This document shows positions 1 to 57,140 of a stretch of 64,000 bases of DNA, piece by piece. Under the pieces are notes generated by a model, which made no database searches, had not been told where the DNA came from, and worked only from the letters and a program-made list of their open reading frames with translations. Source of the stretch: Candidatus Falkowbacteria bacterium (GTDB lineage Bacteria; Patescibacteriota; Patescibacteriia; XYB2-FULL-38-15); assembly GCA_037440105.1 (NCBI GenBank), contig JBBIUS010000001.1:28945-92944 (forward strand), written 5' to 3'. The position numbers and the translations under genes are program-made. Within the stretch, counting starts at the first letter, position 1; every line of letters starts with the position of its first letter.

Positions 1-2263
1 TCCAAGTAGTTGTTGAAGCAGTTTTATCCTGCCAAAATTTGACCAATCCAGCTGCTCCTAATCTTTCGCCATAAAGATTAACTTGCAAATTTTCTGGACC
101 ATTGTCTGGTTCTAACAAACAAAGGCCTGGCTTTGGCGAGCCGGCGGTTATTTCAAACTGCGATGGACTTAAATCAGAAGTATCATCGCTTAAACCAACT
201 GAAGTTACCAATTTCAAAACCCCGCTTATTGCTCCGGTTGGAACCTTAACAACTACTGAGTCATTCTTCCACCAATTTGCCCTGCAAAGGGCTGGAAAAT
301 CTGTGGCTGCTAAAATATCTCTGCCTTCTGCATCTTTAAAAAAGACCTGCCCTATTGCTGTGCCAAAATTTGAACCATAGATTGTCACATATTCTCCAGG
401 CGGCCCTGACTCTGGCTCAAAACGCAAAATTTTTGGTCCTTCGGCAACCGGCGTTACTTGAAAATTAACTGGATTGCTTGTTTCGCCTGCTTTTGAAACT
501 TGAAGAGAAACAAGGCCAGGAACAATGTTTGGCACGGTTGATAAAATTGAAGTATTCGTCCAATTTATAATTCGTTCGGCTCTTGTTCCGCCAAAGGTTA
601 CTTCGCCGTCGCCTCGTTCAGAACCAAAATTTATACCAGTCAAAGTAACTTCAGCCTTAAAGGGAGCGCTTGCTGGCTCTGCAGAACAAAGACCAGGTCT
701 AACTGTTTCATTGACATTAAAATCTGGCAAAAATGGTCCGCGACCGTCGTTTGTTTGGTCAGTGTAATGATTTTGCGTTGTTCCCTCTTCAATTTTAATT
801 GGCCCGCTGACCGCGCCTTCTGGAACAGCAACAACAATTTGATTGTCTTGCCATGGCAGTCGACAGCTGGCAAGCGGAGCAACTTTGTCATCTCCTTCGC
901 CTTCACCGCCTAAAAAAACAACCTTTCCAGGGTTGCTCCCAAAATATTGACCAAAAATTGTAATATAATTTCCTGGCGCACCATTATCTGGCTGGACGCT
1001 TGTAATGACCGGCAAATTTGTGCAAACACCGTTCTCGCAGTGACCGCCGGCGCAATCAAAATCAGAAGTGCAACTTGCTCCTTGGCAGGCGCCGCAGTCA
1101 GCTCCGCCGCAGTCGCGGCCAGTTTCATCAGCATCCTGCAAATTATTAAAACAATGAGCTGCCCGAACTACTACTTCTACGCCAGATGAAGTAGCGCTGT
1201 TTGCGTCAACATCGTATGCTTTCACTGCCAGGGTATGCCGCGAACCAAGCGTTATGCCGGTTGTATCCCAGTCGGCTTTTCCGCTGAATTCGCGGGGTGA
1301 ACCAGTTGGCGAATCAGTGGCAAACCGATTTCCATCAACCATAAACTCTAAATAAGAAATACCTGCATCATCAGTTGCTCGCCCTCCAACTTCAACGACT
1401 GCATCAGCACTGACCGATTGACCAGAATCAGGTTGAGTAATTTCAACTTCAGGTCCTCTGACATCAACCAAACTGCCGGTTGTAAAAGAAGTCTGGCAGG
1501 AAGGCGCCAAGCCGCCACAAACTAAAGCTCGACCGTCGGAGCTTCGTACCTCAGTAGTTAGTTCAACAATATATTCTGTATTTTCTTCAAAACATTTTTT
1601 ATCATCATTTGGCGGCGGACAGAGAGCAACTGGAGAAAACTCTGCAACATTGTCTGAAACAGAAATTAAACCATCGACCAAACTTTGGTCAGCAGATTTT
1701 TTAACTGTGAAATTGCCAGGCGCTTCTAAACTTGCTAAATCAACATTTCGATTAAAAACAACTCTAACTGTAACATTGCGAATTGGAAGGCTGCCAGACG
1801 GACTAATGCTCCTGACAACAAAAGCCTCAACCGGCAGGCCTGGCTCACCTCCTGGAGGAATCCCTGGGCCGACCTCACCTCCGGGCGACGCGCCAGTCGC
1901 CTCCATTAATCTATTTAAAACAAATTGAGTAATACTAAAAGCAAAAATAATAATTACAAGACCAATTACTGCGCTTGTTAAAACCTTTTTAGCTTTTGCG
2001 ATTCGTTCTTCATTGCCGGCGGCTGTCATCCAAACAAAACCGCCGTACAAAACAATGGCAAAAGCAACAATTCCTAAAAATCCTAAAGCAACCCGGATAA
2101 TTCGGGCAGCAACAATCCTTGGATCTTGAGTCGGCAGAGCAATTTCCTCGCCAATTTCGTTAATACCAAGTTCTTGAGCAAAAACGGATTGGACAAATAC
2201 AAAACCAACCGCAGATAAAAACAGCACCAAGAGAATTTTTAAAATTTTCTTTTTCTTCTCCAT
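1..2263 (-). CDS. Large surface/secreted protein, partial (C-terminus lies beyond window start): signal/TM, TrbC/VirB2-like pilin membrane hairpin, Ig-like region, Cys-rich module, at least 4 IPT/TIG-like repeats
   Basis: Own translation of the minus strand from ATG (complement of 2261-2263): MEKKKKILKILLVLFLSAVGF...LYGGFVWMTAAGNEERIAKAKKVL... The frame stays open down to position 2. It is missing from the ORF track only because there is no in-window stop. Recurrent GxPGxY[IV]TIxGxxFG modules are present. The small plus-strand ORFs at 102-1928 are shadows of this gene. Confidence 0.8.
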   Translation of the reverse strand, partial: MEKKKKILKILLVLFLSAVGFVFVQSVFAQELGINEIGEEIALPTQDPRIVAARIIRVALGFLGIVAFAIVLYGGFVWMTAAGNEERIAKAKKVLTSAVIGLVIIIFAFSITQFVLNRLMEATGASPGGEVGPGIPPGGEPGLPVEAFVVRSISPSGSLPIRNVTVRVVFNRNVDLASLEAPGNFTVKKSADQSLVDGLISVSDNVAEFSPVALCPPPNDDKKCFEENTEYIVELTTEVRSSDGRALVCGGLAPSCQTSFTTGSLVDVRGPEVEITQPDSGQSVSADAVVEVGGRATDDAGISYLEFMVDGNRFATDSPTGSPREFSGKADWDTTGITLGSRHTLAVKAYDVDANSATSSGVEVVVRAAHCFNNLQDADETGRDCGGADCGACQGASCTSDFDCAGGHCENGVCTNLPVITSVQPDNGAPGNYITIFGQYFGSNPGKVVFLGGEGEGDDKVAPLASCRLPWQDNQIVVAVPEGAVSGPIKIEEGTTQNHYTDQTNDGRGPFLPDFNVNETVRPGLCSAEPASAPFKAEVTLTGINFGSERGDGEVTFGGTRAERIINWTNTSILSTVPNIVPGLVSLQVSKAGETSNPVNFQVTPVAEGPKILRFEPESGPPGEYVTIYGSNFGTAIGQVFFKDAEGRDILAATDFPALCRANWWKNDSVVVKVPTGAISGVLKLVTSVGLSDDTSDLSPSQFEITAGSPKPGLCLLEPDNGPENLQVNLYGERLGAAGLVKFWQDKTASTTTW

Positions 2264-2273
2264 GGATAATTTT

Positions 2274-2346
2274 GAATCAGGAATTATGAATCATGAATCA
2301 GGATTTTCAAAAATTACCCTGATTCCAAATTCCAGATTCATAATTC
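2274..2346. repeat. Word-hairpin spacer, family A (GAATTATGAAT / ATTCATAATTC words), copy 1
   Basis: Left arm gaatcaggaattatgaatcatgaatcagg, AT loop, right arm cctgattccaaattccagattcataattc. It lies between the stop of the 2354-4156 gene and the start of the 1-2263 gene. Confidence 0.7.
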
Positions 2347-2353
2347 AATAACT

Positions 2354-4156
2354 TTATTTCCACGGCTCGCATCCCGGCGGAAGATTCCCATCTGGTCCAA
2401 CAATACACTTTTTTCCCCCTCCTGGCCCTTCCGGCTCAAAAAAACAGTTTTGATAAACATCTTTTACGCCATGGGTAACGCGAGGATAATACATGACTGT
2501 TTCTGGACTAACCAAATTACCATCAGCACAAGTTCCGCCGGTTGGAATAAAATTCCCATGATAAATCGCGGCCTTTGTTTTGGCTGCCACATCGTCAGGA
2601 GAATCTACCGGCGTACCATCTTCTTTCAAATTTATTCCACCTAAATAAAACCAAACAGCGCATTCGTCCCTTTGATTATCCTCCAAAATTATGTTTTCTG
2701 AATTAAAACTACCAATGCTCATTATCTTCGAAAAAAACATTTCAACCGGCACATTAAAGGCCGCACCTGATGTGTTTGGAGAAGGACTGACATTTTCAAT
2801 TTCTGGCGGGGCTAAATCAATTGTGTTGTTAGTGCTAAAAGAAAGGCCAAAGTTATCAACTCCTGAAATTTCATCCAAATCTGACCCTTGCGCTGTACCA
2901 TCTTTGTTGCCGTCCAAAGAATTGCCAGCTGCATCAGTAACCCCATCATAAGGCCAAAGAGCCTCTGGCGGCGACTCACTCAAGGTTGCGGCCAAAATCA
3001 AAACGTCAATTCTTTCATCACCCGGCAAACAAAAAACATCTCCACCGCATGAATTTGTTCCGCATTTATCATTAGTTATAAATTCCACTGTCTTGTATTG
3101 ATTAGCGATTGACCATCGCCCAGAAATTGGACTGCCATCGGCTTTTTTAACTTCAATCTTATCAAAAAATGTTGGCCATTCTCCGGTAACTGTTGTCGGG
3201 TCCATTGCCTCGTCAAAATTAATTTGAATTAGGGCATTTCGCGCCACTGTATCTCCTTCATTTGGCCAGACGCTCTCAACTTGCGGCGGGGTTGTGTCAA
3301 CAAAAGTGCTTACTTCAAAATCCCAAAGGTAACCGCCGCGAAAAGCGCCGACAAAGGCGTCAGAACCATCGGATTTCCGAATACCTGGCTTCAGAGCCAC
3401 TGTATACCAAATGTTTTCTGAAGGACTGCCTAAAAGATCGTCTGGATCAAAAACAAAAGTTTTCAAGTCAGAAGTAAACATCACTTTAACTTGGTTATCT
3501 GCCAATGCGTTGATTTCTCCGTCAATTGATTTATAAATTTTTACATTCTCGCTGTTCAAACCACCCCAATCATCAGCCAAATTATCAGGTGTGCCGTTAT
3601 CATTATAATTGGTTATGATGCTTTCGCGCGTTACTGATTCTCTAAAAGTAACAATAATTTTTGTATTTCTGCTAACGCCAGTCGCGCCGCGGGCTGGCCA
3701 ATGACTTTCAATTATTCCATTACCTAAAGAACTAGAAAGTTGCTCAACAACTGATGGACCGCCGGGAATGCCGGGCCCAAGCACGCCTGTTACTTCTATT
3801 AGTTTATTTAAAACAAACTGAGTAATACCAAAAGAAAAGACAATAATAATTAAACCAATTAAACCATTAGTTAAAATCTTTTTCGCTTTTGCAATCCGTT
3901 CTTCATTGCCGGCTGAGGTCATCCAGGCAAAACCGCCGTACAAAACAATTATTAAGGCAATAATTCCTAAAAAACCTAAAGCTGCCCTAATAATTCGGGC
4001 AGCAATAATCCGCGGGTCCTCTCCGGGCAAAGTGATTTCTTCACCAACTGCATTAATACCAAGTTCTTGAGCGAAAATGGTTTGAATAAATAAAAAACTG
4101 GCCGTGAATAAAAACAGTACCAAGAAAATTTTCAAAATTTTCTTTTTCTTCTCCAT
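2354..4156 (-). CDS. Surface protein paralog: signal/TM + TrbC/VirB2-like pilin hairpin + Ig-like (SbsA/Big-like) domains, 600 aa
   Basis: ORF track. The first ~125 aa are about 75% identical to the neighbouring 1-2263 protein (DPRIIAARIIRAALGFLGIIALIIVLYGGFAWMTSAGNEERIAKAKKIL). The rest is beta-rich extracellular-type sequence. Confidence 0.85.
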   Translation of the reverse strand: MEKKKKILKIFLVLFLFTASFLFIQTIFAQELGINAVGEEITLPGEDPRIIAARIIRAALGFLGIIALIIVLYGGFAWMTSAGNEERIAKAKKILTNGLIGLIIIVFSFGITQFVLNKLIEVTGVLGPGIPGGPSVVEQLSSSLGNGIIESHWPARGATGVSRNTKIIVTFRESVTRESIITNYNDNGTPDNLADDWGGLNSENVKIYKSIDGEINALADNQVKVMFTSDLKTFVFDPDDLLGSPSENIWYTVALKPGIRKSDGSDAFVGAFRGGYLWDFEVSTFVDTTPPQVESVWPNEGDTVARNALIQINFDEAMDPTTVTGEWPTFFDKIEVKKADGSPISGRWSIANQYKTVEFITNDKCGTNSCGGDVFCLPGDERIDVLILAATLSESPPEALWPYDGVTDAAGNSLDGNKDGTAQGSDLDEISGVDNFGLSFSTNNTIDLAPPEIENVSPSPNTSGAAFNVPVEMFFSKIMSIGSFNSENIILEDNQRDECAVWFYLGGINLKEDGTPVDSPDDVAAKTKAAIYHGNFIPTGGTCADGNLVSPETVMYYPRVTHGVKDVYQNCFFEPEGPGGGKKCIVGPDGNLPPGCEPWK

Positions 4157-5094: not shown

Positions 5095-6456
5095 TTAAAC
5101 ATTCGCTAACTTCTTTTTAATCTCAAAAGCCGCCTTTTTGAAATTAACAACCTCTTGCGCTCCGCTTTCCATATCTTTTATTATAGCAGTTCCATCAGTC
5201 ACTTCTTTTTGCCCCAAAAGCAGAACAAATTTTACTCCCAATTTGTTAGCAAATTCCAATTGCGGTTTAAGCCCATCTTTAGAAAGATTAGAAGCAGGAT
5301 AAATACCCTCTTTTCTTAACTCTTCAAAAAGCGTTAAAATTTTTCGCCGAGCGGCCTCCCCCAACTGAGCTAAAAAAACCATTGGTTTCTCAAGTTCAGG
5401 TATTGGCAAATTTTTTTTCTTTATTACTTGAAGTATTCTTTCTGCCCCAAAAGCAAATCCGCAAGCAGGGGTCGGCCTGCCCCCTAAAAATTTTATCAAA
5501 TCATCATAACGCCCTCCGCCGCCTAAAGAATCCTGTTTTTCCTCTTCTCTTTCTTCAGAAATAATTTCAAAAACAGTTCGAGTGTAATAATCAAGACCGC
5601 GGACCAAGTAAGGGTTTAAATTATAAGGAATGCCAATTTCATCTAAATATTCTAAAACCTTAACAAAATGGCTTTTGCATTCTTCGCACAGCCAATCAAC
5701 TATTTGAGGAGCCTCTTCTTTTACACTTTGGCACTTTTCTTCTTTACAGTCCAAAAGCCGTAAAGGATTTTTAGTCAATCTTTTTTTACAACTATCACAA
5801 ATTAACTTTTTCTTTGTCTGATAATAATCTATTAGTTCGGCAGTGTATTTAGACCGGCAGGAAGAACAGCCGATACTATTTATTGAGACAGAGGTATTTA
5901 GTCCCAATTCCTTACAAAAATTAAAAGCCAAAATAATTGTTTCTGCGTCAACCGCAGGATGGCCGTCGCCTAAAATTTCAAAACCTAACTGCCAAAATTG
6001 GCGAAGTCTGCCGGCCTGAGGCCGTTCGTGTCTAAACATTGGCCCATAGTAATAAAGTTTTACTGGCTGAGGCAAATTAATCATTCCGTGCTGAATGTAA
6101 GCCCGAGCAATAGAAGCAGTCGCTTCAGGTCTTAAGCAAACTTCTTCACCTCCTAAATCAACAAAAGAAAACATCTCTTTTTCCACAATGTCGGTATGGG
6201 TACCAACAGCCCTAACAAAAAGATTTTTTGCTTCTAAAATAGGGACATCAATTTTAGAAAAACCGCTCCCTATAAAAAATTTTTCGGCTTTTCTTTGGAG
6301 AAAGAACCAATATTTTTGCTCTCCAGGTAAAATATCTTTCATCCCGCGCAAAGTCTGGAGTTCTTTTTGAACAACTGGTTTTTTTGAAATTAAAGCTTTT
6401 GTTTTTTTTGCCTTTTTAACTTCCTTTGCTTTTTTAATTTTTGGTTTCCTTGCCAT
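5095..6456 (-). CDS. hisS: Histidine--tRNA ligase
   Basis: Class II HisRS signatures LRGMKDILP, CLRPEATASIARAY, GGGGRYD, and an anticodon-binding C-terminus. Lys-rich ~35-aa N-terminal extension. Confidence 0.95.
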   Translation of the reverse strand: MARKPKIKKAKEVKKAKKTKALISKKPVVQKELQTLRGMKDILPGEQKYWFFLQRKAEKFFIGSGFSKIDVPILEAKNLFVRAVGTHTDIVEKEMFSFVDLGGEEVCLRPEATASIARAYIQHGMINLPQPVKLYYYGPMFRHERPQAGRLRQFWQLGFEILGDGHPAVDAETIILAFNFCKELGLNTSVSINSIGCSSCRSKYTAELIDYYQTKKKLICDSCKKRLTKNPLRLLDCKEEKCQSVKEEAPQIVDWLCEECKSHFVKVLEYLDEIGIPYNLNPYLVRGLDYYTRTVFEIISEEREEEKQDSLGGGGRYDDLIKFLGGRPTPACGFAFGAERILQVIKKKNLPIPELEKPMVFLAQLGEAARRKILTLFEELRKEGIYPASNLSKDGLKPQLEFANKLGVKFVLLLGQKEVTDGTAIIKDMESGAQEVVNFKKAAFEIKKKLANV

Positions 6457-6524: not shown

Positions 6525-7145
6525 TTAAAAATTATACTGCGGCGCCTCAAAAACCTTAATTTTATTAAATGGCCATCCCCTAATCCAAACCTTACCAACA
6601 ATTAATTTGCGCTGGATCGGACCAAAACTCCGCGAATCATAACTTGAGAGTCGATTGTCGCCCAAAACAAAATATTCCTCAGGGCCTAAATTAACTGTTT
6701 GATTCCCCAGCGTTTTTAAACCTTCTTCTAAGTAAGGTTCATCTATCACCATGCCTTTTGGATTTTCTTCATTGTAAATTATTATCTTTTCGTTTGAAAT
6801 TTCAATTTTTTCGTTTGGAAGTCCTATTATCCTTTTAATAAAATATTGGCTTTTATCTTTTGGATATTTGAAAACAATAATGTCTCCGCGCTTAGGCTCA
6901 TTAAATCGATAACTTATCTCGTCAATAATCAAATATTCATGGTCATAAAAATTTGGCTCCATAGAAGCGCCTTTAACATAAAACGGCTGGATCAAAAAAT
7001 AACGAATTGGAACAATGATTGCCAGAGAGACTAAAATAACCTTAACTATTTCTATAATATACGAAATAATTTTCTTTAATCGGTTTTCGCTTGTTAGTTC
7101 AAAACCAATTTGTCCTTTTTTGTCTTGAGAAAAAAATTTAGACAT
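6525..7145 (-). CDS. lepB: Signal peptidase I
   Basis: N-terminal TM, then S26 boxes GASMEPN, GDIIVFKYP, FIKRIIGLP, VLGDNRLSSYDSR. Confidence 0.93.
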   Translation of the reverse strand: MSKFFSQDKKGQIGFELTSENRLKKIISYIIEIVKVILVSLAIIVPIRYFLIQPFYVKGASMEPNFYDHEYLIIDEISYRFNEPKRGDIIVFKYPKDKSQYFIKRIIGLPNEKIEISNEKIIIYNEENPKGMVIDEPYLEEGLKTLGNQTVNLGPEEYFVLGDNRLSSYDSRSFGPIQRKLIVGKVWIRGWPFNKIKVFEAPQYNF

Positions 7146-7168
7146 AATTTAAAAAATTTTCTAATCAA

Positions 7169-7229
7169 TGGACAATGCTGGATTTGAACCAGCGACCCCT
7201 GCAATGCCCATGCCCCGCACCTTTTATCA
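7169..7229 (-). other. tRNA-like 3' half module (T arm + acceptor 3' strand) preceded by the helix strand TGATAAAAGGTGCGG
   Basis: Minus strand: TGATAAAAGGTGCGG GGCATGGGCATTGCAGGGGTC GCTGG-TTCAAAT-CCAGC ATTGTCC A. ATTGTCC pairs with GGACGAT of the 7304-7351 module. Confidence 0.45.
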
Positions 7230-7303
7230 TGGACGCGGTCCGATTCGAACGGACGACCTTTCGGATGTGAACCGAATGCTCTAACCAACTGAGCTACGCG
7301 TCC
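7230..7303 (-). tRNA. tRNA-Val (anticodon CAC)
   Basis: Hand-folded cloverleaf: GGACGCG TA GCTC AGTTGGTTA GAGC A TTCGG TTCACAT CCGAA AGGTC GTCCG TTCGAAT CGGAC CGCGTCC A. No encoded CCA. Confidence 0.92.
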
Positions 7304-7351
7304 TAATAAAAGGTGCGGAGTAAAAGTGCTCTTCCGCTGAGCTAATCGTCC
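7304..7351 (-). other. tRNA-like 5' half module (acceptor 5' strand + canonical D arm) followed by the helix strand CCGCACCTTTTATTA
   Basis: Minus strand: GGACGAT TA GCTC AGCGGAA GAGC A CTTTTACT CCGCACCTTTTATTA. The D loop has A14, G18G19 and A21. No anticodon arm could be assigned. Confidence 0.45.
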
Positions 7352-7774
7352 AATTGTAATATAAACAACGCGGCTAAAACAATTTTTATTATAATTTATT
7401 ATAACATAAAAAAATTATAAAATGCAACCTTTTATTCTAAAATAATCCGAGACACAAAATAGGGCGTCAAAAACAGAAAAACTAAAGAACCAAAAATCAA
7501 AAATAGAAAACTTGGATTACGCTCACCCTTTATGACTTTAAAACAATTTTGCGGACATATTTTATTTTAAAATAATGCGCCCTTATTTTTGAGTAATTTT
7601 TATTTTTGTTGTACAATTAAAAAATTAATGGATGATAATTGAATCAAAACCAAAAATCAAAAAATCGTTTGGTATTAAATATTAAAATTTTAATATCTGC
7701 CCATTTCGCATTTTCGTAATTTCGTAGGATTATTAATAATCTCATAAAACTAAACAGTTAAGGTCTAATCATTA

Positions 7775-9223
7775 ATGAAAATCAATCTTTTAGAGGAAAA
7801 AGAAAAGATAGAAAAACCAAGAAGAAAATTTTACGGCAGCGGATTTATTGCCGTGTTTTCTATTTTAACTCTTTTATTTTTCTATAATTTAATTTTTGCA
7901 AAAAGCTTTTTCAAAATTGGTGTCCCAACCTCAGGAGAAGAACTTACGCAATGGGTTGAGAAAAAAATAAATTTTTTTGGGAAAATCGGCCTCCTGATAA
8001 GAAGTTCTGACAAAGAAATCAGGGGCGAAAAAGAAGGACGCATAAATATTCTGCTTTTAGGAATGGGCGGCGTTGGGCATGAGGGTACTTACTTAACTGA
8101 CACCATCATTTTAGTCAGCGTCAAACCAAAAGAAAAAATAGCCATGCTTTCTATCCCCCGCGACATGGTTGTCCCTATCCCGGGCTATGGCTGGCGAAAA
8201 ATTAATAATGCAAACGTTTTTGGAGAGCTGGCAAACCGCGGCAGCGGCGGAGAATTTACTAAAAATATCATTAGCCAAGTTTTTGAGATTCCCATACATT
8301 ATTATGTCAGAGTTGATTTTGACGGATTTAAAAAACTCATCGATGATTTAGGAGGCGTAGGAATTTATGTCGAAAGAAGTTTTACTGATTATAGTTATCC
8401 AACTTCTGATTTTAAATATCAGACTGTTTCATTTCAAAAAGGCTGGCAAATTATGGACGGGGAAACTGCCTTAAAATTTGTCCGCTCAAGACACGGAACC
8501 AACGGCGAAAGTTCTGATTTCGCGAGAAGCAAAAGGCAGCAAAAAGTTATCTTGGCTTTAAAAGAAAAAATTTTGTCTTTAAGCACCTTAGCAAACCCGC
8601 AAAAAATTTACAAAATATATTCAGGATACCAAGAAAATGTAAAAACCGATTTTGAAATCTGGGAAGCGCTTCGCTTTGCCAAAATCATTAAAGATATTGA
8701 AAACAAAGAAATCATTAATCAGGTCTTAGATGACAGTCCTAACTCCCCTCTCTACGCAACCAATATTGACGGCGCTTATGTCCTTGTCACGCGAACTGGG
8801 GATTTTAGCGAACTTCAGTCTCTTGCCCAAAATATTTTTGAACTTAAAAACCAAACCGCTCTGCCTGAAGCAAAACCCCTTATAAGAGTAGAAATTCAAA
8901 ACGGAACAAAGAAAAATGGTCTTGCGGCAAATACTGCTAAAGAACTTGAAAAAATAGGTTATGAAGTTGTTAAAATCGGCAACGCCCAAAAACAAAACTA
9001 TCAAAAAACTCTAATCTACGACTTAACAAAAGGTCAGCGCCTTGACGAACTTACTTTTTTGAAGGAAAAGCTTGGTGCTGATATCTCAGTAAGTATTCCA
9101 ACTTGGCTTTTAAGTTCATTCACCCCTTCTGAAATAACTATTTTAGATAAAACAAATTTTATAGATTCAAAAACTAAAATTGATTTTCTCATTATTCTTG
9201 GAGAAAATGCCAATTATTTCTAA
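7775..9223 (+). CDS. LCP family (LytR/CpsA/Psr) cell-envelope phosphotransferase with LytR_C-like tail
   Basis: TM anchor, then NILLLGMGG, TDTIILVS, LSIPRD, VDFDGFKKLID, ALKFVRSRHG, SDFARSKRQQ. Confidence 0.9.
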   Translation: MKINLLEEKEKIEKPRRKFYGSGFIAVFSILTLLFFYNLIFAKSFFKIGVPTSGEELTQWVEKKINFFGKIGLLIRSSDKEIRGEKEGRINILLLGMGGVGHEGTYLTDTIILVSVKPKEKIAMLSIPRDMVVPIPGYGWRKINNANVFGELANRGSGGEFTKNIISQVFEIPIHYYVRVDFDGFKKLIDDLGGVGIYVERSFTDYSYPTSDFKYQTVSFQKGWQIMDGETALKFVRSRHGTNGESSDFARSKRQQKVILALKEKILSLSTLANPQKIYKIYSGYQENVKTDFEIWEALRFAKIIKDIENKEIINQVLDDSPNSPLYATNIDGAYVLVTRTGDFSELQSLAQNIFELKNQTALPEAKPLIRVEIQNGTKKNGLAANTAKELEKIGYEVVKIGNAQKQNYQKTLIYDLTKGQRLDELTFLKEKLGADISVSIPTWLLSSFTPSEITILDKTNFIDSKTKIDFLIILGENANYF

Positions 9224-18954: not shown

Positions 18955-18970
18955 TTTAAAAGAAGTTCAT

Positions 18971-19042
18971 CGCGGGGTGGAGAAGTAGCATCTCGCCTGG
19001 CTCATAACCAGGAGATCGCCGGTGCAAATCCGGCCCCCGCAA
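18971..19042 (+). tRNA. tRNA-Met, initiator-like (anticodon CAT), with atypical D and T loops
   Basis: CGCGGGG / CCCCGCA gives a C1xA72 mismatch, and A11:U24 is present; both are bacterial initiator marks. The D loop AGTAGCA lacks GG and the T loop is TGCAAAT (G at position 55). Confidence 0.75.
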
Positions 19043-19206
19043 TTAGTTGAACCTCGATCTTTAATGGTTTTGTTTTAACGCCGATTAACGCCGAGGCCTC
19101 CTGTACCGCAGTGGTAATAGCACAATTAACTTGTCGGCCTGACGCTGAAAAACGCAGACGATAGAAAGTGCCATTTCAGCATAATGCGTCGAGAACGTCG
19201 GGACGA

Positions 19207-19226
19207 CAAATCCGGCCCCCACAATT
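19207..19226 (+). repeat. Direct repeat of the initiator tRNA 3' end (19/20 identical to 19025-19044)
   Basis: caaatccggcccccRcaatt occurs at 19025-19044 and at 19207-19226. Weaker similarity extends ~15 nt further upstream. Confidence 0.8.
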
Positions 19227-56786: not shown

Positions 56787-56827
56787 TAAAAATTCAACGC
56801 AAAAAGCAACTTGACCCCGCACTTTTT

Positions 56828-56899
56828 TCGGGGTACGGAGAATCGAACTCCGGACTCACCCACCCCAAGGGTGTGCGTTACCATTACGCTATACCCCGA
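56828..56899 (-). tRNA. tRNA-Pro (anticodon GGG)
   Basis: Minus strand: TCGGGGT..CACCC TTGGGGT GGGTG..CGGAG TTCGATT CTCCG TACCCCGA. Confidence 0.85.
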
Positions 56900-57140
56900 A
56901 AAAAATGCGGGCTAAAAAGAATGTCAACCTTCTACCGCGTCTTGGAAAAAACAGATTCGAAATATTTCTTCCTCCTAAATTATGGCTAATAAAAGATTTT
57001 AAAATATTATTTCTACAAACATCAAAAACTACTATCACGCTTCTTTTAATTAATTATCAGTTTGACTATTATAATCAAAAATTTATAAAGAAGCAATTGC
57101 TAAAAATATCTAGAATGTACTAGAAAGTGCCATTTTTTAA

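Follow-up and report, generated by a model that had tools for sequence, protein, structure and literature searches.

In a 64,000-nt stretch of DNA from a Candidatus Falkowbacteria bacterium (contig JBBIUS010000001.1 of assembly GCA_037440105.1; hereafter the window), we analyzed a locus directly upstream of lepB in which one tRNA gene lies between the two parts of another. The sequence is that of a low-GC genome of Patescibacteria/Parcubacteria type. We consider it likely, with a probability of about 0.8, that a 108-bp cassette, bounded by inverted-repeat arms and carrying a foreign tRNA-Val(CAC), broke into the anticodon arm of a resident tRNA-Val(CAC) gene. In this explanation the inner gene is functional and the outer one is a pseudogene. 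Judged from the sequence, the arms are the ends of a widespread family of palindromic elements of Patescibacteria, similar to miniature inverted-repeat transposable elements (MITEs).

The components of the locus are listed in Table 1. The initial annotation had described a nested layout running from 7351 to 7169 on the minus strand with a complete tRNA-Val(CAC) at 7303->7230, and this was confirmed by the sequence, ARAGORN, Rfam and the predicted fold. Rfam family RF00005 matched the inner gene with 71.1 bits (threshold 29) over model positions 1-71, that is at full length, and ARAGORN called it tRNA-Val(cac); at this locus both programs recognised the inner gene only. It has the discriminator A73 and no encoded CCA, and we presume that it is a functional gene. 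Together with the two arms it makes up the 108 bp of the cassette. RNAfold gave a nested fold for the 201-nt region, with a minimum free energy of -81.3 kcal/mol (z = -6.1), which was equalled by 0 of 200 shuffles. The outer acceptor strands pair 7/7, as had been claimed, the D stem pairs 4/4, the T stem 5/5, and the T loop is canonical. The long closing helix also stood; it had been given as 15 bp with one G-U pair, and we counted 17 consecutive pairs with two G-U pairs between 7320-7304 and 7229-7213. The outer pieces had been described as having no foldable anticodon arm. We observed a vestigial one 3' of the helix, GCA / UGGGCAU / UGC, with three pairs and a 7-nt loop. The motif CTTTTAC, taken earlier for a Lys-UUU loop, turned out to be junction sequence; the outer gene is a tRNA-Val(CAC).

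The identity of the outer gene was established by comparison with related loci (L numbers). In L326, the closest relative (LepB 84% identical), an uninterrupted 72-nt tRNA-Val(CAC), GGACGATTAGCTCAGCGGAAGAGCACTGCATTCACATTGCAGGGGTCGCTGGTTCAAATCCAGCATCGTCCA, lies 30 bases upstream of lepB. In L084 and L085 (LepB 73-74%) the gene is uninterrupted at the orthologous place too, with compensatory differences in the stems. The search for an intact outer tRNA in related genomes, recommended in the initial annotation, was thus successful. The outer 5' part agreed with the L326 gene at 26/26 bases, and the outer 3' part, from CATTGCAG (8 retained anticodon-arm bases) onward, at 37/38. The sole change in the 3' part was C68->T, which keeps the pair as G-U. 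Only positions 28-35, TGCATTCA in L326, were disturbed, being represented by TTTTA before the insert and CATGGG after it. The outer anticodon loop reads UGGGCAU, with G33, where L326 has UUCACAU. Because this loop has neither U33 nor CAC, the outer RNA would be unable to decode, and we regard the outer gene as a young pseudogene. When the element was removed exactly, ARAGORN called the joined halves tRNA-Ala(ggc), with G33, an A-C stem mismatch and a distorted D arm. Their anticodon, GGC, agrees neither with Val identity (A35, C36) nor, as G3-U70 is lacking, with Ala identity.

Breakpoints were read by eye against L326, since MAFFT had aligned the intact relatives to the inner gene and not to the outer one. 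On this comparison the breakpoint lies somewhere between positions 27 and 36. One alternative placement would be a break at 35/36, a site used by several other nests, followed by duplication of GGGCAT.

Further, we compared the inner gene with other tRNA-Val genes. Identity was 68% with the native type, approximately 80% with the inner Val genes of L328/L082 and 78-79% with un-nested Val genes of the more distant relatives L004, L017 and L078. Since it is only 68% like the native type and about 80% like other inner genes, it is not a local duplicate, and this cargo has an outside origin. Inner and outer genes are near-identical in L073, L053 and L002; therefore in-situ duplication or gene conversion also occurs.

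The probable promoter of the nested unit has an arrangement, TTGCAT...TGTTATAAT, that also precedes the uninterrupted tRNA of L084 and the nested locus of L082/L328. Against the proposed hexamer stands a consensus promoter scan, which chose a neighbouring TATAAT in preference to the one within 7406-7398.

Table 1. Features of the nested tRNA-Val locus, of a second family member in the window, and of nests and GIY-YIG open reading frames (ORFs) in other loci. MAG, metagenome-assembled genome.
Locus	Feature	Positions	Strand	Basis or remark
Window	Probable promoter of the whole nested unit	7398-7427	minus	TTGCAT 7427-7422, 18-nt spacer, TGT-TATAAT 7406-7398; read from sequence
Window	5' part of disrupted resident tRNA-Val(CAC), GGACGATTAGCTCAGCGGAAGAGCAC: acceptor strand, D arm, positions 26-27	7326-7351	minus	GGACGAT-TA-GCTC-AGCGGAA-GAGC-AC; comparison with L326
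Window	Junction filler TTTTA	7321-7325	minus	Decayed anticodon-stem remnant or insertion-derived; L326 has TGCATTCA here
Window	5' arm of inserted element, CTCCGCACCTTTTATTA	7304-7320	minus	Pairs with 7229-7213; fits family pattern CCGCAYYTTTT...AAAARRTGCGGGG
Window	Inner cargo tRNA-Val(CAC), intact	7230-7303	minus	ARAGORN, Rfam RF00005
Window	3' arm of inserted element, TGATAAAAGGTGCGGGG	7213-7229	minus	Pairs with 7320-7304
Window	Vestigial anticodon arm of resident gene, CATGGGCATTGCAG (CAT GGG CAT TGCAG)	7199-7212	minus	Comparison with L326; ARAGORN fold of joined halves
Window	3' part of resident gene, GGGTCGCTGGTTCAAATCCAGCATTGTCCA: variable loop (GGGTC), T arm GCTGG-TTCAAAT-CCAGC, acceptor ATTGTCC, A73	7169-7198	minus	
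Window	Second family member: tRNA-Pro(GGG) 56898-56828 within CCCGCATTTTTTT / AAAAAAGTGCGGGG	56815-56911	minus	Inverted-repeat search, sequence, pattern match
L002 (Falkowbacteria MAG JACRNW010000008)	Three nested tRNA-Val; outermost with hairpins in D and T loops	2327-2930		
L259	Thr in Thr, three deep			
L302, L317	Thr in Thr			
L318	Pro in Pro			
L274/L310	Ser in Ser			
L211	Arg in Arg-like gene			
L235	Val in Val			
L002	89-aa GIY-YIG ORF, starts in anticodon region of outermost Val	2410-2679		Pfam PF01541, E = 1.4e-14
L318	GIY-YIG ORF abuts nested Pro			
L259	GIY-YIG ORF ~300 nt from nested Thr			
L076	GIY-YIG ORF abuts tRNA-Ile, then broken Ile-looking tRNA			
L308	GIY-YIG ORF, ends 43-45 nt upstream of tRNA-Gln(CTG)	3762-4073		L308 and L320 are unrelated contigs
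L320	GIY-YIG ORF, ends 43-45 nt upstream of tRNA-Gln(CTG)	7651-7970		
L289	GIY-YIG ORF inside another 16S rRNA insertion	2122-2361		
L235, L272, L301	GIY-YIG matches not next to tRNA or rRNA gene			L235 match ~3 kb from nested Val

The arms of the window helix, CYCCGCACCTTTT / AAAAGGTGCGGGG, are part of a widespread inverted-repeat element. Its ends are (C)CCCGCACCTTTT ... AAAAGGTGCGGGG, and the conserved arms are 13 bp long, extended to 17 bp in the tRNA-Val copy of the window. We scanned with the pattern CCGCAYYTTTT-N70-100-AAAARRTGCGGGG, which gave two matches in the window, at the tRNA-Val and at a tRNA-Pro(GGG), compared with 0 in 100 shuffles. In the metagenome collection it was found at at least 120 loci, and in the viral collection there were 0 matches. 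The arms of the tRNA-Pro(GGG) form 13 pairs, one of them G-U; the unit is closely preceded by TTGACA and closely followed by a terminator made of a hairpin and a T-run, and at 56815-56911 no outer tRNA halves were recognisable. Among the matches listed, the interiors were mostly non-tRNA sequence of approximately 100 nt, many with the core AGAGCCG-NNAG-GCGGCTTCGCC, and an exact 4-bp direct repeat was present at the junctions of 30 of 95 unique copies, compared with 0-2 in shifted controls. The repeats in this set were TCAA (12), TTGA (7), TAAA (5) and TTTA (2). Its flanks showed a preference for T at -4, A at -1, T at +1 and A at +4, so that the target-site duplication consensus is TNNA, and they differed between copies, which indicates unrelated sites. 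TNNA direct repeats together with inverted-repeat ends are, on sequence grounds, the signature of a transposable, MITE-like element.

Copies were located at promoter -35 boxes (TTGACA), in the spacers of ribosomal-protein operons (tuf-rpsJ-rplC in L250; the S8/L5/L24/L14 region in L322) and inside 16S rRNA (L231 by Rfam, L289 and L311 by flanks). Rfam, run on 15 element-bearing loci, gave no match within the elements themselves. The 16S copy of L231 lies at 1994-2101, and those of L289 and L311 stand between ...GAGACTG and AGGAAGGAGGGGACGACGTCAAGTC (family labelled CCCCGCACCTTTT); the flanks suggest that the insertion site is the tip of a hairpin in the 3' domain, near E. coli position 1170. 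The conserved-core subfamily AGAGCCG-NNAG-GCGGCTTCGCC, with extended outer inverted repeats, recurs in the spacers tuf-rpsJ-rplC (L250 651-757 and 1259-1365) and rpsH-rplE-rplX-rplN (L322 7952-9564), and many of its copies are flanked by ...AAAACCTTTA on one side and TGCTCAATTTTGTAGCTAAAA... on the other. This subfamily, for which Rfam gave no match, could be a structured RNA or a processing site as well as a repeat.

Two other candidates were rejected. A looser arm pattern, CCGCACC N75-105 GGTGCGGGG, gave 120 matches in the viral collection, none with a tRNA, and these were considered random in GC-rich phages. Arms as halves of bidirectional terminators or as a DNA-uptake sequence were rejected, since the window shows no over-representation of the motif and target-site duplications flank the unit.

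We then considered the copies that carry a tRNA. Among the matches listed, ARAGORN detected a tRNA inside approximately ten metagenome copies, namely Thr-CGT (three), Ser-CGA (two), and Arg-CCG, Arg-TCT, Val-CAC, Glu-TTC and Pro-TGG (one each). In the same set, removal of the element in silico followed by a rerun of ARAGORN produced a junction-spanning tRNA for cargo-bearing copies only, and for none of approximately 95 cargo-less ones. Most tRNA-carrying copies are flanked by tRNA halves, and the outer identity was the same as that of the cargo wherever it was readable (Val, Thr, Pro, Ser, Arg; Table 1). A second arm family, CCCCGTAAGAAAGC, surrounds the nested Ser(CGA) in L279/L284. More generally, a helix of at least 11 bp enclosed 20/106 tRNAs from candidate phyla radiation (CPR) loci, compared with 1/106 when the flanks were shuffled, and no shuffled helix exceeded 11 bp.

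Selection is the simplest reading of the same-identity rule: insertions inactivate a tRNA gene and persist only if a replacement comes along. The cargo tRNAs are mostly C34 isoacceptors (Val-CAC, Thr-CGT, Ser-CGA, Arg-CCG). Such isoacceptors tend to be the least essential in decoding, which may be why these genes tolerate turnover. We also observed that breaks between anticodon positions 35 and 36 occur with differing arm sequences, in Thr-CGT (twice in L259, reverse complement 790-1110, and once in L302), in Pro-TGG (L318) and possibly in Ser-CGA (L279). The breakpoint in the window is compatible with the 35/36 site of L259, L302 and L318.

The lepB neighbourhoods of 80 species-level genomes were fetched for comparison. 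A tRNA-Val(CAC) was present in many of them, and about one third of those showed nests or relics. Across the whole group the lepB-linked locus is a hotspot. In L002 the middle tRNA is interrupted in the D loop by GCTTGCCCGCCCACCTT, a tRNA-Val and ...AAGGTGGGCGGGTGAA, and the innermost gene is intact; the two are identical at positions 19-64 and differ in four compensatory acceptor-stem pairs. The same D-loop element was found in L025 and L235, with compensatory changes in the arms (CCCTCCCGCC / GGCGGGAGGG; CCCTCCCAAC / GTTGGGAGGG). In L020, L025 and L074 an element with conserved ends CCTGCCCGCC...GATGGCAGGCGGG is located at position 37/38, and in L053 and L019 one with CCCGCCCG...CGGGCGGG at D-loop position 21/22. 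In L073, CCCCGCACCATTT...AAATGGTGCGGGG stands in place of the entire anticodon arm; it belongs to the arm family of the window and encloses a Val with native leader and trailer. The recurrent sites (T loop, D loop 21/22) suggest a site preference for conserved tRNA motifs.

Two independent events were seen in the clade of the window, the window insertion itself and the D-loop nest of L327, L328 and L082/L083. In L327 the outer halves have decayed, and L328 and L082 are without the 3' half. Therefore the outer halves are not maintained over time.

Two side observations concern these relatives. In the native tRNA-Val of L073 (2480-2800), leader and trailer form a stem, AATTCTC...GAGAATT, and part of the leader is complementary to the 3' end of the tRNA, CCA included; both features persist in the inner copy, with the compensatory change AATTCAC...GTGAATT. 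Further, relic tRNAs have short perfect GC-rich palindromes in their T loops, such as CCTGCCTGCCGGCAGGCAGG inserted between G53 and T54 (sites at L074 ~2052-2071, L327 ~190-230, L002 ~2880-2911 and L003 ~2858-2889).

Ten GIY-YIG matches were obtained in the 1.35 Mb of CPR loci examined (Table 1). At the window locus there was no ORF of at least 65 aa in 7140-7780, and no GIY-YIG similarity was detected there or elsewhere in the window; nuclease-assisted recombination is only a possible route for the window copy. A possible tRNA-like relic was noted downstream in L308.

We propose the following course of events. The whole nested unit would be transcribed from the resident promoter, because the 108-bp cassette shows no evident promoter of its own. 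Once transcribed, the arms would form a 17-bp leader-trailer helix stacked on the acceptor stem, with A73 alone unpaired. RNase P and a 3' nuclease could act only after a double-strand RNase, for instance RNase III, had opened this helix. RNase P, the 3'-end nuclease and the CCA-adding enzyme would finish the tRNA-Val, the CCA having to be added because it is not encoded, and the outer fragments would be by-products. Long perfect duplexes flank stable RNAs twice in the window, with 17 bp around Val and 13 bp around Pro. The RNase III signature motif was not found within the 64-kb window, which says nothing for or against this step. The insertion would survive since the element brings a replacement of equal identity, and repeated rounds would lead to the Russian-doll loci of the relatives. 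The cassette may have arrived by transposition, or by recombination using the conserved tRNA halves as homology arms, perhaps helped in some lineages by GIY-YIG nucleases.

Several observations weigh against insertion of a mobile cassette. The window copy has no clean target-site duplication (TTTA / CATG), and neither do most tRNA-embedded copies; in L259, for example, the element stands between CTCG and TAA. In several independent cases the tRNA lies 0-4 nt from the arms, which simple DNA capture does not explain. A small sample of distant arm pairs, 0.3-3.5 kb apart, enclosed ribosomal-protein genes, a radical-SAM-like gene and an uncharacterised ORF, and no transposase was found between them. 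The internal non-Watson-Crick pairs in tRNA-carrying helices comprised 4 G-U on the tRNA-sense strand and 0 C-A, which hints at selection on the RNA helix, besides or instead of the DNA ends. The same asymmetry on core-containing elements gave no information, as the pattern had itself selected perfect arms. Finally, the outer gene retains near-perfect acceptor, D and T arms, so that either the interruption happened recently compared with the divergence from L326 or some constraint acts on these arms.

Part of this evidence is shared by the explanation that we rank second and consider unlikely. According to it, the helix is a host RNA-processing stem, like the leader-trailer stem of rRNA operons, and the nest results from nuclease-triggered exchange between tRNA alleles, by gene conversion or recombination, and not from MITE transposition. 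The precise abutting of tRNAs and arms, the internal G-U mismatches on the sense strand and the tRNA-embedded copies without target-site duplication all agree with it. So do the tRNA-Pro of the window, which has the same arms without an outer relic, the inner copy of L073 with its native leader and trailer, and the GIY-YIG genes in or beside the nested tRNAs of L002, L318, L259 and L076. However, the same arms bound segments of approximately 100 nt that are not tRNAs, with 4-bp duplications, at many unrelated sites including 16S rRNA. The arm sequence is conserved across lineages and cargos, which fits recognition by a mobility protein, and there is no nuclease gene near the window locus.

Three readings had been offered in the initial annotation: a split or interrupted tRNA, a tRNA-Val cassette with inverted repeats that destroyed another tRNA gene, and a tRNA-like structural RNA. 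The uninterrupted orthologue and the multi-copy family bear out the second. In the first, the inner Val would be cut out and the outer halves, held by the helix or ligated, would act as a second tRNA. The intact acceptor, D and T stems and T loop speak for this, as do the cloverleaf that ARAGORN accepts for the joined halves and the outer gene of L020, which would be a perfect tRNA-Val if the insert were removed exactly. We nevertheless consider this reading close to refuted at the locus and very improbable. The ruined anticodon loop, with G33 and the anticodon GGC, has neither Val nor Ala identity. There is no bulge-helix-bulge, since 17 uninterrupted pairs start at the junction and 3-nt bulges are lacking. 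Relatives have a plain gene at this place, and elsewhere the outer halves decay or go missing. Cargo-less copies never occur in intact tRNA genes; therefore the insert is probably not spliced out at the RNA level. The ancestral outer gene was moreover a Val(CAC), so the isoacceptor that would be missing is already carried inside.

Still less probable is the structural reading, in which the outer pieces and the helix form a tRNA-like structural or regulatory RNA, for instance for the downstream lepB. A well-folded structure does lie directly upstream of that gene, but at this position relatives hold a plain tRNA, or versions that are decayed or nested in another way, so the outer halves are not conserved as a unit, and no Rfam family besides tRNA matches. 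We give hardly any credit to the idea that two tRNA-Val alleles were fused into a chimera during assembly: assemblers can be misled by repeated tRNA sequence, but an independent assembly, Logan contig L001 (SRR11582170), is identical across the region, dozens of analogous nests with differing sequences occur in unrelated MAGs and metagenomes, and perfectly pairing arms are not expected from a chimera. A group I intron was rejected, as Rfam at a permissive threshold (E <= 1) matched no broken tRNA, intron family or ribozyme in the whole window, and the insert is only 108 nt, mostly tRNA.

Insertion of a tRNA-carrying cassette into the resident gene can be extended to a general proposal, which we put forward tentatively and hold to be rather doubtful in its full form. 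Patescibacteria may host selfish hairpin-ended cassettes, sometimes with a GIY-YIG gene, which destroy a tRNA gene yet carry a diverged working copy of it, a natural 'destroy-and-rescue' strategy. The broken halves would serve as homology arms when the cassettes spread from genome to genome, each invasion of the rescue copy would add a layer and so lead to the two- and three-deep loci (Val, Thr, Pro, Ser, Arg), and the helix would act both as DNA ends and as an RNA processing stem.

We compared the cassette with known systems. It resembles bacterial MITEs and Rickettsia palindromic elements in being small and non-coding, with hairpin-forming terminal inverted repeats, many copies and a short target-site duplication. 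Insertion in intergenic DNA and RNA genes is another likeness, and sister GC-rich hairpins lie in frame in yqeY and hisS. In contrast to bacterial MITEs, some copies here carry a complete tRNA inside a tRNA gene of the same identity, and no autonomous partner was found. We know of no described MITE that carries a complete functional tRNA within a same-identity tRNA gene. Bacterial MITEs and palindromic repeats have been reviewed (PMC3184786, PMC5896051). SegB of phage T4, a free-standing GIY-YIG homing endonuclease ('intronless homing'), acts in a tRNA gene cluster (PMC2330249). There, too, tRNA genes are the target of a selfish element that comes with its own copy of the tRNA region, and GIY-YIG ORFs lie by the nests of L002, L318, L259 and L076. 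However, the window locus is without a nuclease gene, and in T4 the resident gene is converted and not left as halves.

Phages and integrative and conjugative elements that insert in tRNA genes restore the gene by a duplicated 3' segment; they are kilobases long and encode an integrase. The damage is offset by a supplied replacement tRNA sequence in both cases, but theirs is the 3' part only, whereas here a cassette of approximately 110 bp holds a whole tRNA, and the old gene stays broken. Archaeal disrupted tRNAs (the split tRNAs of Nanoarchaeum and the multiple or mobile introns of Thermoproteales; PMC4390854, PMC4033280) share a GC-rich helix that joins two pieces, and insertions at several positions including the anticodon loop. 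They differ in that the present case is from a bacterium, has no bulge-helix-bulge and no usable outer anticodon arm, and has a functional gene as the intervening sequence. Intervening sequences of rRNA are known, including rRNA insertions reported for CPR bacteria (PMC9698310, PMC10221324). The element family described here also occurs as a helix-closed insertion in 16S rRNA (L231, L289, L311), whereas the window case is in a tRNA gene and carries a tRNA. Pack-MULEs are non-autonomous cargo-capturing transposons of eukaryotes, and cleave-and-rescue drives are engineered. By analogy only, the former are likewise non-autonomous elements with host gene sequence and the latter likewise destroy the resident gene and supply the rescue; the window contains no linked nuclease, and any drive effect here is hypothetical.

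A literature search, limited in coverage and no proof of non-existence, gave no description of nested tRNA genes or of tRNA-carrying MITEs or palindromic elements in CPR bacteria. The tRNA-in-tRNA arrangement, up to three layers deep and present in many related genomes, therefore seems undescribed.

For annotation, the locus should count as one functional tRNA-Val(CAC) and one pseudogene, and not as a bacterial split tRNA. More broadly, the tRNA genes of these small genomes are recurrent targets of small palindromic elements and GIY-YIG genes, and the insertions that persist bring a spare tRNA. Such a pattern would be a small-scale natural case of a selfish element undoing the harm that it causes. 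Odd tRNA fragments in CPR genome bins would be explained by it, as would tRNAs that are 'missing' or duplicated there, and it links insertions in tRNA genes to the long-known, poorly explained rRNA insertions of this group. Nested loci would also be natural substrates for studying tRNA processing from fully base-paired precursors.

Two minor observations remain. GC-rich palindromes CCCGCCCG...CGGGCGGG and relatives lie in frame in yqeY and hisS (L004 5654-5720, L032 ~5860-5900, L031 4594-4626), where they add 17-30 residues, like Rickettsia palindromic elements. On the plus strand of the window, at 19043-19225, a second copy of the 3' end of an initiator-type tRNA-Met (18970-19043) is found approximately 160 nt downstream of that gene (ACAAATCCGGCCCCCACAA vs GCAAATCCGGCCCCCGCAA). 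It looks like what remains of an earlier tRNA-Met after an insertion had displaced its 3' part, in the manner of integrative elements.

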